From: a virus
Lineage: Duplodnaviria; Heunggongvirae; Uroviricota; Caudoviricetes
Direction: 5' to 3' (one strand)
DNA length: 40,547 bases
IMG/VR virus record: IMGVR_UViG_2617270967_000014
Shown: positions 12,001-15,000 of the stretch, one piece after another
Numbering within the stretch: position 1 is the stretch's first letter
How the letters are laid out: each line of letters starts with the position of its first letter
Position numbers: made by a program

Positions 12001-15000
12001 ATGCGATCGCTCCCAAAGAATATGTCTTTCAGCACATGAGGGAATCACAGTAAACGGAGCTAACAAAGCTCAACAATATGGAGATAAATTCAGAAGAATG
12101 TTTCCATACTACAGTCTCTATTCTACAGACACACTCCGAACAATGCAGACAGCCACTTTTTTTTCGGGAGGTAAGACAGCAACTATTCCGGACATATCGA
12201 CATGTGATGATAACGCAGTAAATAATATCCTTAAAATATCAAAATCAGATCATGTTACTGTGATTTTCACACATAATCACTGTCTGTCCAGAATTGCAAA
12301 AAAAATGAATGGATGGAGATTTAAACCTGATTATATGGGCACACTGGTTCTGCATCGGGAAAATCACAATCTGATTCTCGACGGACATTTAAAACCAAAC
12401 GAGCTTACCCAGTGATCCATTTGTTGATAATGCACTGGCATTGATTCAGGTTATATCTCTCCTCATAAAAAAGGCCAGCGATTGAGCTGGCTCTGTTAAT
12501 CGAGGCATTGCATCCTGATGTACTCCTGCAGGTAGTTAACCTGCGCGGTTATCTTGTCGATTCCACTTCGGAGACGGTAATAATTGAGTTCAGCATCTGC
12601 TGTAAGTCCTGAGCTTTCTCCATCGCCCATGCCGCTGGCTCCGGTCGTTGACTTTGCACAGGTGGCGGCGACTTGCAGGCGCTTACGCCCAGCAGAAACA
12701 TCAGCACGGAGACTTTCAATAGTCGCGTTAGCATCAGCAAGCTCCCTGGTGTATCTGGCATCGAGTGCAGCAACATCACGCTGGCGCTGCTGTATGTCAG
12801 CAATGGTGGCGTTCGCCTGGCTGAGTTTTGTCTTCGCATCATCTCGCTGCTCTTTGTAGGTGATGGCGTTATCACGGTAATGGTCTGTTGCCAGCCACAG
12901 CGATCCACAACCAAGCAGCAGGACAATAAGCACGCCATACAGCACACGATTCATATCACCACCAACGGATTGCCCAGACCAGAACAGCAATTGCCACAAT
13001 ACGAATGGCAAAAGCTGCCGCTCTTGTTAAATCCAGACTTGCTGGCGTCTCCACCTCAATGCCTTTCATAATGGACAACCTCAGAAAGAATCTTTTATAC
13101 TTCCTCACAGGGAAAGAACCTCCCTACCCATAATTTCTCCCTTGCCTTATTCAAGGTCAGAAACACAAAACCCCGCTTGCTGCCAACAAACGGGGTTTTT
13201 ACTTTTACTCACTTAAATTTTGCCAGTTCGCAGGATTTCGTGTTATCCGTTCGCGTTGGTCAACGGCATTTTTCAGCAGAATATTCTGCTTATCTGTCGA
13301 TACTCCAGCACGCCAGCGCGCTCTCCTGGTCACGCCGCGATACCTGCCCGTAACAGTTATTTGAGCGGTTCCGACAGTCCCTGCCGCCGTCATATATCCA
13401 TCGGCGGATTTCAGCACATGCACCTTTCCGGTCTCCTGCGTTCAGTTTCCGGTAAAACGTTGAGGTGAAGCATTTCGAAGGCCCGATGTTGTACGGACAG
13501 AATGACGCGATGCCCGCTTTCTGCGGTTCGGTCAGTGGCACTCTGATGTTTTTCTCCACCCATGCCAGCGCCTTATCACGCTCAATGGCGTTAACCCGGT
13601 CGCATTTTTCCTTCGACAACTTCATGCCCGGAACGACAGGTTTGCCATCCACCAGGATGGCACCGCGGCAGATAGTCCAGATACCCGCACCATCACGGTA
13701 TGCCGTGGTGTGGTTACCTTCTTTTTCGTCAAGAAACTGGTCGAGGATTTCAGGCGCAGAAGCGCCCGCAGCAATCAGCGCCAGAACGACCGCTGATAAA
13801 CCATAGCGGAATTTCCTGCTCATCAGCTTACTCTCCCCGCGCCGCCTTACGCCGGTCCTCTTTGATTTTGAAATACAGGTTAGTCAGGTACGTCAGCAGC
13901 CCAAACAGCAGACTCCCCAGCACGCCTATTGCCGCCCACTGAGACGGGGAAACCCTGTCCAGCAACTGCAGGAACCAGTAGCCCGTTCCCACCGCTGACG
14001 TGGTGTATGACACACCTGTTGTGATTTTTTCCATCTGGTACATACCCCGTCTCCCGCAATCCGGAAGCTCACAACAATATAAAGACCACCGGCACACACC
14101 GATGGTCCCTTGCGCATGCTTACATCATCATGTCGCTGTCAGGTGTAGGTTCACCGCCATCTGAAGCACTCCCGTCACCCGCGATACCTTCCGGCTCAGG
14201 AACCGCTGGTACGCCCAGCAGCTCATCCAGAATGGCATCCACTTCTGCATCAAGACGCGACTCAAGGTTCTGGCGGAGTTTCTGTTTCAGTGCGCTCCGG
14301 ACTTCTTCAGAGCGCAGGACTTCCTTCACTGCCTCAGCAGTGACCAGGGATGTGATTTCTGACATGGGATTTTCTCGCTGAAAGGGGTTGTTAAGGAGTA
14401 ACGGGTTCTTCGGGCTTGCTTCCGGCTGACTGACTGGCGCTGATTTTCTCAGCGGCCCTTTTATCAATCTGCCTGCACCAGAAATCGCGCACAGCCCTGT
14501 ACCCACCCGAAAGAAGATACAGCACACAGACCGCCGTACAGAAGTACAGCATCACCTGATGAATAAATGTCATAATTTCTTACCGTTATGGTTGACAATG
14601 AGAATTGTTTTCATTTAAAAACCAATGTACGAAAGCATCTTTTCTTTACATTCTCCATTGGGATTACCTCCGCCAGCTTCCATTCCTGCCGCTGGCGGCT
14701 TTTTTTAGCAATTATGCGGCTGCTCCAGCTTTGTTTGCTTTAACTTCCACCGTATCAATAAGTACAGGGTAGGTTTCTGCACTACCTGTAATATCCGTAA
14801 TGACAAACCTGTTGAGTCCATTAGCAGTATTGGCCCATTTCACCAGGTCAAACGCCTGTCCATCCACACCATCAAGCACCGGAGTAACATTAATGCTGTT
14901 ACTGCCCTTAAATTTAAATGCAAGCGTATGCCAGTCATGGTCGAATGCGCCAAACGTGCCAAGTTCTTTTTGTTGATTAACTGTATGATGGTATGCAACA

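Follow-up and report, generated by a model that had tools for sequence, protein, structure and literature searches.

In lysogens of pathogenic Escherichia coli, the expression of host and virulence genes is reprogrammed by prophage small RNAs (sRNAs), among them AsxR, AgvB, StxS, HnrS and the Pas RNAs. PasA and PasC of enteropathogenic E. coli (EPEC) E2348/69 have been validated by northern blot, Hfq dependence and the sequencing of ligated interacting RNAs (RIL-seq); PasA is an 85-nt RNA from the minus strand (NC_011601.1, 743499 to 743415; flanking genes '> < >', Table S6) and PasC a 79-nt RNA (NC_011601.1, 1290909 to 1290832), and their homologues are given as EcOnc51 and EcOnc52 (Pearl Mizrahi et al. 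2021, PMC8550237). The latter were found as peaks of 77 nt and 78 nt in Hfq crosslinking and analysis of cDNA (CRAC), in prophages Sp12 and Sp4 of enterohaemorrhagic E. coli (EHEC) Sakai (Tree et al. 2014, PMC4104026). The pasA and pasC genes are located between a sialate esterase gene and the holin-lysozyme operon, and a BLAST-based survey recovered Pas genes from just 43 phage genomes (Zhu, Shabalina & Storz 2026, bioRxiv 10.64898/2026.05.13.724894). Here we describe a plus-strand element at 14592-14706 of the virus record IMGVR_UViG_2617270967_000014 (40,547 nt, analyzed whole and called the window below; position 1 is its first letter), which occupies the same slot with a different sequence. 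The slot is already known to hold sRNAs, and the window allele was not described before. We consider it reasonably likely that this element is a self-contained prophage sRNA gene, an undescribed allele of the esterase/lysis-cassette slot that is expressed in the lysogen, with an Hfq-type 3' end, a CU-rich seed and a terminator that doubles as an insulator of nanS-p.

The window is a lambdoid prophage resembling Shiga toxin (Stx) phages but without stx, and its late operon runs on the minus strand with Q, a nanS-p-like esterase gene, genes for DUF1378 and DUF826 proteins, a class II holin, a lysozyme and an Rz-type lysis gene. A preliminary description of this stretch had placed promoter-like and terminator signals antisense to the late operon, and this orientation is borne out by the two flanking genes, which both lie on the minus strand: the gene for the nanS-p-like sialate O-acetylesterase (14712-16622; DUF1737, SASA and DUF6645 domains) and that for the DUF1378 protein (14391-14573), the first gene of the DUF1378-DUF826-holin-lysozyme block and the one with which the sRNA-like element travels. 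All of the candidate sRNA signals sit on the plus strand of the 138-nt spacer between these genes. A TTGACA hexamer, matching the -35 consensus at 6/6 positions, is found at 14592-14597, exactly where it had been reported. The hairpin and T7 tract that had been assigned to 14668-14706 were also essentially right, and resolve into a stem-loop at 14670-14698, in which CCGCCAGC (14670-14677) and GCTGGCGG (14691-14698) enclose a 13-nt loop and form a perfect 8-bp stem with 7 G-C pairs (fold of the stem-loop, -15.1 kcal/mol), and a T7 (U7) tract at 14700-14706, separated from the stem by one C, which is the proposed termination point and likely Hfq-binding 3' tail. The tract ends 5 nt from the nanS-p stop codon (14712-14714, minus strand).

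A G+C-rich stem-loop with an immediate U-tract, the hallmark of an intrinsic terminator, is thus present on the plus strand, and the terminator should act on plus-strand transcription only, since on the late strand A7 precedes the stem and AGGUAAUCCC comes after it, leaving no U-tract. Searching both strands of the window with strict criteria (a perfect stem of at least 7 bp, a loop of 3-15 nt and at least 6 T within 2 nt), we found four distinct terminator sites; 100 dinucleotide-shuffled versions averaged 0.07 sites and had at most 2. TTGACA by itself is not enriched in the window (11 copies on both strands vs about 20 expected); by arithmetic from the window counts, however, the chance that a given terminator is preceded by the hexamer on its own strand, at a distance of 60-90 nt, is about 0.004. 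At the -10 position the best hexamers are TAAAAA (14616-14621; 18-nt spacer), which is A-rich and non-canonical, matches TATAAT at 4/6 positions and carries no T at -7, and the alternative TTAAAA (14615-14620; 17-nt spacer), from which the final T is likewise absent. A further candidate, GAGAAT (14600-14605), was rejected, as its last position is a C in most alleles.

We inspected the PasA, PasC and EcOnc51/52 loci, and found that each RNA is antisense to SASA esterase and holin genes, as the window element is to its flanking late genes. The distance from TTGACA to the RNA 5' end is exactly 29 nt in both PasA and PasC, and that to the EcOnc52 peak is about 28 nt. An A-rich block follows at -10 (TCAGAA in PasA and PasC, TGAAAA in EcOnc52), and the promoters of PasA and PasC are equally non-canonical. 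A GCCAGC...GCUGGC core stem followed by U7 is common to PasA (GCCAGCAC/GUGCUGGC), PasC (GCCAGCG/CGCUGGC) and EcOnc51/52, and the window element shares the -35 hexamer, the G+C-rich GCCAGC-core stem and the U7 in the same esterase/lysis-block slot. Its tract abuts the esterase stop codon as in PasC and EcOnc52, in which, as well as in the VT2-Sakai copy of the window element, the end of the U-tract lies 1 nt from that stop. Because TTGACA precedes the PasA and PasC 5' ends by 29 nt, we predict a 5' end at about 14627 (+/-3 nt) in the window. The predicted sRNA (14627-14706, plus strand) would consist of a CU-rich, weakly structured 5' half, the terminator hairpin and U7, and its size of about 80 nt, itself derived from promoter geometry, fits the 79-85-nt class of PasA and PasC (77-85 nt with EcOnc51/52). 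The 80-nt sequence folds at -18.5 kcal/mol (z -2.2), and, like PasC and PasA, has an open 5' half and a terminator. Downstream, the neighbor is DUF1378-DUF826-holin, rather than holin directly as at the PasA and PasC loci.

To compare alleles, we retrieved 80 IMG/VR loci via DUF1378, which gave 33 unique sequences plus divergent alleles. Among the 33 unique DUF1378-linked sequences, only 2 depart from TTGACA (they read TTGACT and TTAACT). The hexamer persists even where the flanks are unrelated (L036, L062 and L035), and an A-rich T-N-A-R-A-A block occurs at the same -10 spacing in every allele, preceded by TGT in several. Four alleles (L020, L035, L036 and L062) have a DUF1378 gene 93-99% identical to that of the window and an RNA body only 45-75% identical; all of them retain TTGAC(A/T) with the A-rich block 17-18 nt further on, and a strong stem whose T6-T8 adjoins the esterase stop. 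In total, at least five diverged alleles adjacent to DUF1378 hold this frame around differing RNA bodies. The stem of L036 is wholly different yet self-complementary (GCUCCCGGC/GCCGGGAGC). In every allele the T6-T8 lies on the plus-strand side of the stem, and none has a T-tract on the opposite side. Within the Sp5-like group, one stem pair goes from C-G through U.G (L077 and L082) to U-A (L078, L080 and L083), a series that fits an RNA read from the plus strand, since the U.G intermediate would be a C.A mismatch on the other strand. Applied to 19 alleles, RNAalifold retained the terminator helix only and left the 5' half unstructured.

Allele comparison also bears on coding capacity. The preliminary description had seen no plus-strand open reading frame (ORF) here; two can be read mechanically (14588-14743 and 14605-14772), but we rejected them as genes and regard the region as non-coding, because their ATG is missing in many alleles and changes in A-run length break the frame.

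VT2-Sakai, EDL933 and many other Stx phages share the block at 14407-14710 with about 87% identity, a likeness that ends at the T-run. To the right of this run the sequence switches among at least four esterase 3' ends, which marks the run as a mosaic boundary. The 126-nt element by itself was found in 758 of 5426 complete E. coli genomes, with 1285 occurrences altogether (a median of 2 and a maximum of 7 per genome), including a 100% identical copy in the chromosome of the O104:H4 strain FDAARGOS_349; strain cM8a has such a copy as well. The element is present in 67 phage records, and the block in 298. Set against the 43 phage genomes with Pas genes, these counts suggest that the window element lies outside the BLAST-defined Pas set. 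Among the records inspected, none carries an RNA annotation at the element, and no DUF1378 loci were found in a one-genome-per-species collection. In the Sakai chromosome, the Sp5 esterase gene is split within its 3' end by an IS629 (L006 4004-5313; NC_002695.2 1270503-1271812), and the sRNA-like element (NC_002695.2, about 1272086-1272219, minus strand) and DUF1378 are intact downstream of the esterase remnant ORF ECs_5706.

In the mechanism that we propose, host RNA polymerase would use TTGACA with a weak, A-rich -10 to start near 14627, and transcription would end at the G+C-rich hairpin and U7, at the nanS-p stop codon, yielding an RNA of about 80 nt. As this RNA would be independent of Q antitermination, it is expected to be made in the lysogen. 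The hairpin and long U tail would serve as a usual Hfq-binding 3' end, and the open CU-rich 5' half (UCUUUUCUUUACAUUCUCCAU...CCUCC) could pair in trans with purine-rich ribosome-binding regions of target mRNAs. The candidate seed is a conserved single-stranded motif, UUCUCCAU (14651-14658, plus strand), whose complement is the ATG GAG start of a late-strand mini-ORF; YTCYTCCAT is kept in the window-type, Sp5-type, L020, L035 and L036 alleles despite their differing flanks. An anti-Shine-Dalgarno-like CCUCC (14667-14671, plus strand) follows just before and overlapping the terminator stem, and reads CCACC in about half of the alleles. Any late transcript would moreover contain, between nanS-p and DUF1378, a perfect complement of this RNA, and as a by-product the terminator of the sRNA gene would keep plus-strand transcription out of nanS-p. 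We infer transcription, Hfq binding and targets of the window allele from the features described above. Of the two readings offered in the preliminary description, the small RNA is the better supported, by the occupants of the slot and the frame kept across alleles, and for the window allele it is still a prediction.

Several results weigh against an sRNA gene at this site. A consensus promoter scan called no promoter at 14592, since no hexamer in the -10 region combines A at position 2 with T at position 6; the preliminary description had itself named the lack of an acceptable -10 as telling against its proposal. In the published papers and supplements examined, we found no transcript, transcription start site or Hfq-binding evidence for the window sequence type, and its Sp5 and Sp15 copies do not figure in the EcOnc table (Tree et al. 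2014, PMC4104026). That table covers only peaks that are antisense to ORFs or lie more than 100 nt away from them, and one Sp5 Hfq site was dropped owing to the ORF-distance filter (Sy et al. 2020), so that the silence of the table is weak evidence. The body of the window RNA is unrelated in sequence to PasA and PasC, and the PasA seed GCCAGCACCU is absent from it. Pairwise global alignment with shuffles detected no similarity to PasA or PasC beyond the shared anchors, and a covariance model built from window-type alleles (R1), which matches the window at 14624-14706 (110 bits), the Sp5 copies (93-96 bits) and L036, scores an EcOnc52-type unit at only E = 0.19-0.37 and misses PasA and PasC. 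Formal covariation is thin, the stem being nearly invariant within window-type alleles. Finally, the conservation of CCUCC-N8-CAU could reflect selection on a late-strand ribosome-binding site.

In view of the alignment and R1 results, we treat the window element as sharing slot and architecture with PasA and PasC, and not as a demonstrated homologue. An Rfam scan of 14580-14710 (E up to 1) returned no match to AgvB (RF02702), AsxR (RF02703) or any other family, and a scan of the PasA, PasC and EcOnc51/52 loci likewise returned no family. We also considered whether the window allele is the PasA-2 of Zhu et al., and rejected this identification, as PasA-2 retains the PasA 3' end and seed. DUF1378 and promoters are not mentioned in that study (Zhu et al. 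2026, bioRxiv 10.64898/2026.05.13.724894).

An alternative that we regard as unlikely is that the hairpin and U7 are an insulating terminator only, stopping stray plus-strand transcription before it reaches nanS-p and the region upstream, with an inactive TTGACA and no discrete sRNA. One source of such transcription could be read-through from a plus-strand moron at 11801-12415 in the late region, annotated in an identical genome as a lipopolysaccharide core heptose(II)-phosphate phosphatase gene; it is oriented towards the lysis genes, and no strong terminator follows it. The strength of the terminator, its position against the nanS-p stop, the non-canonical -10, and a plus-strand gene about 2.2 kb upstream followed by a weak terminator-like site are all consistent with this explanation, and the preliminary description had likewise offered an antisense terminator limiting read-in, which is compatible with the data but leaves the conserved TTGACA unexplained. 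In particular, it does not account for the spacing of about 72-75 nt between TTGACA and the stem, which is fixed even among alleles whose flanks are unrelated, or for the same hexamer 29 nt before the mapped PasA and PasC 5' ends. The element is also equally conserved in phages without the 11801-12415 moron, such as VT2-Sakai, and untranslated antisense RNA running over 2 kb is normally ended by Rho.

Somewhat harder to sustain is a decayed or silent allele of PasC-like descent, in which a promoter weakened by loss of a TG-extended -10 gives little or no transcription and it is mainly the terminator that persists at a recombination boundary; we think this improbable. In its favor, TGT precedes the A-rich hexamer in PasA, PasC and EcOnc52, which would give an extended -10, whereas the window type has CAT and thus no TG at this position. 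Hfq CRAC detected EcOnc51/52 in Sakai with the window-type Sp5 and Sp15 copies unlisted, and the T-run is a mosaic junction of the esterase 3' ends, both in line with a silent remnant; the CRAC list, however, left out sites close to ORFs. Furthermore, the retention of the frame through several independent allele replacements, and across 1285 occurrences in 758 genomes, speaks for selection.

The opposite strand offers a further explanation. A 15-aa mini-ORF, MENVKKRCFRTLVFK (14611-14658, minus strand), is preceded by GGAGG (14671-14667) and an 8-nt spacer before its ATG at 14658, fully covered by the predicted antisense RNA. The Shine-Dalgarno sequence and ATG GAG start are retained in all alleles but one, L036 included, though the spacer sequence varies, as it would for a ribosome-binding site. 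Judged from sequence, this GGAGG-N8-ATG GAG conservation could mark either a translated leader of the late mRNA or an anti-ribosome-binding-site seed of the sRNA (UUCUCCAU...CCUCC). It is conceivable, though in our estimate very unlikely, that the element belongs to the late strand altogether, with the stem-loop after the nanS-p stop protecting or processing late mRNA, the leader aiding DUF1378 and the lysis genes, and the plus-strand signals incidental. Two observations fit a leader: the mini-ORF of some alleles stops 13-14 nt short of the DUF1378 start, and the phage record TL-2011c annotates an ORF across the spacer. The peptide, though, is not conserved in sequence or length (4, 6, 11, 14-15 or 23-25 aa, shifting with A/T-run length), about half of the alleles carry GGTGG instead of GGAGG, and neither the T6-T8, always 3' of the stem on the plus strand, nor TTGACA is explained. 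The ribosome-profiling small-gene tables for Sakai (Huecker 2017) list ECs1210 (DUF1378) and no new small gene in the spacer, though the Sp5 mini-ORF is only 4 codons long. A terminator-like A/U-rich hairpin with U5 on the late strand (about 14652-14616) is weak and not conserved in the Sp5 type. A type I toxin-antitoxin unit was rejected because the mini-ORF peptide is hydrophilic, 4-25 aa long and not conserved.

Should the RNA be expressed, the medically most important Stx phages (carriers include VT2-Sakai/Sp5, with copies in EDL933 and an O104:H4 strain) would harbor an additional lysogen regulator that annotation and the BLAST-defined Pas family have missed, and the esterase/lysis junction would be a slot for sRNA body swaps in a fixed frame, a concrete model for the evolution of accessory sRNAs. 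If it is not expressed, the element is an ordinary terminator at a mosaic boundary. A bolder version of the model, which we put forward as speculation and consider improbable, treats the nanS-p/lysis junction as an exchangeable sRNA cassette slot: a fixed frame, consisting of a TTGACA promoter and a GCCAGC-core terminator at the esterase stop, would receive swapped RNA bodies, each with a different lysogen regulon, and the window allele would be a widespread Hfq sRNA whose CU-rich anti-ribosome-binding-site seed acts in trans, tied to immunity via cI mRNA and covering a translated leader before the lysis genes.

The link to immunity derives from a complementarity between the body of the predicted RNA and the mRNA of the prophage's own cI-like repressor, at 29303-29350 (plus strand) within a cI-like ORF (28988-29692; HTH_3 and Peptidase_S24 domains). 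The pairing comprises about 29 bp, of which 12 are contiguous (AGCTGGCGGAGG) at the Ser-Ala-Gly-Gly codons of the Ala-Gly cleavage site, plus a 7-bp block at matching spacing. The duplex reaches -40.4 kcal/mol, compared with a mean of -33.6 +/- 2.0 for the best site of each of 40 shuffled windows, none of which (0/40) reached -40.4. This cI allele is found in only 15 phage records, at least 10 of which carry a more distant, 88% identical element block; this degree of identity suggests an Sp5-like allele, in which 2 of the 12 contiguous cI pairs would be lost. As the cI allele is rare and allele co-occurrence gives no support, the complementarity is probably due to chance, and we retain it as a lead.

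Two further observations concern the PasA/PasC-type occupants of the slot. In E2348/69 PP2 (L002 2468-2700, minus strand) and Sakai Sp12 (L005 917-1190, plus strand), the slot is filled by a tandem pair of units, PasA/EcOnc51 and then an EcOnc52-like one. Both have their own TTGACA and GCCAGC-stem/T7, and the second terminator, at the esterase stop, is where the 'minor' 236-nt PasA 3' end (743264) falls; pasA copies have been described as not tandem (Zhu et al. 2026, bioRxiv 10.64898/2026.05.13.724894). In PasA/PasC-type loci, moreover, the interval from the sRNA promoter to the holin gene contains a terminator oriented along the late strand (GCCGTCAGTGGGTGACACTGGCGGC + T6; L002 2834-2863, plus strand; L003 2045-2074, plus strand; L005 788-817, minus strand), whose stem resembles the CCGCCAG/CTGGCGG stem of the window in the opposite direction.

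Other phage RNAs are comparable in part. Lambda OOP and P22 sar are cis-antisense RNAs of about 69-77 nt, each with its own promoter and intrinsic terminator, which oppose a phage operon, pair over their full length with an intercistronic or 3' stretch of its mRNA, and act on cII and ant, respectively. Unlike these, the window RNA would cover only the start of the non-conserved mini-ORF on the opposing mRNA, and the DUF1378 ribosome-binding site, about 54 nt from the predicted 5' end, would not be covered.

The likeness to AsxR and AgvB is that of short prophage sRNAs antisense to the late operon (Tree et al. 2014). These RNAs combine a conserved terminator part with a variable 5' part, are expressed in the lysogen and bound by Hfq, traits that the window RNA would share. 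They differ in size (51-60 nt), the window gave no Rfam match to either, and the slot of AsxR, AgvB and a convergent sRNA pair, at the moron site downstream of PR', lies upstream of the esterase gene, vs downstream of it for the window element. The window does contain a second antisense-oriented, sRNA-like unit just upstream of nanS-p (16790-16843, plus strand; terminator stem 16816-16837), whose CACGTTTCATTGTTCATTCCTTGCCGCCCGCGTCTCCCAGCGCGGGCTTTTTT closely matches the EPEC RIL-seq candidate E2348C_1409.E2348C_1408.IGR (homologues EcOnc08/21/42). This unit converges on STnc100 (16844-17049, minus strand, 165 bits), and the two constitute the convergent sRNA pair of Tree et al. 2014, here without stx or another moron.

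Elsewhere in the window, a strong minus-strand terminator at 17115-17137 (GCCAGCCTCCCCTGGTGGCTGGC + T7), about 250 nt downstream of Q and with a GCCAGC core in its stem, is probably the tR' of the late-promoter leader RNA (StxS/6S-like). In the early-right region, two tandem C4 antisense RNA/isrK/c4-a1b1 modules (20191-20389 and 21776-21974, minus strand; Rfam 47-75 bits) adjoin two antirepressor genes (Ant, KilAC), forming a duplicated antirepressor control unit of the P1/P7 type.

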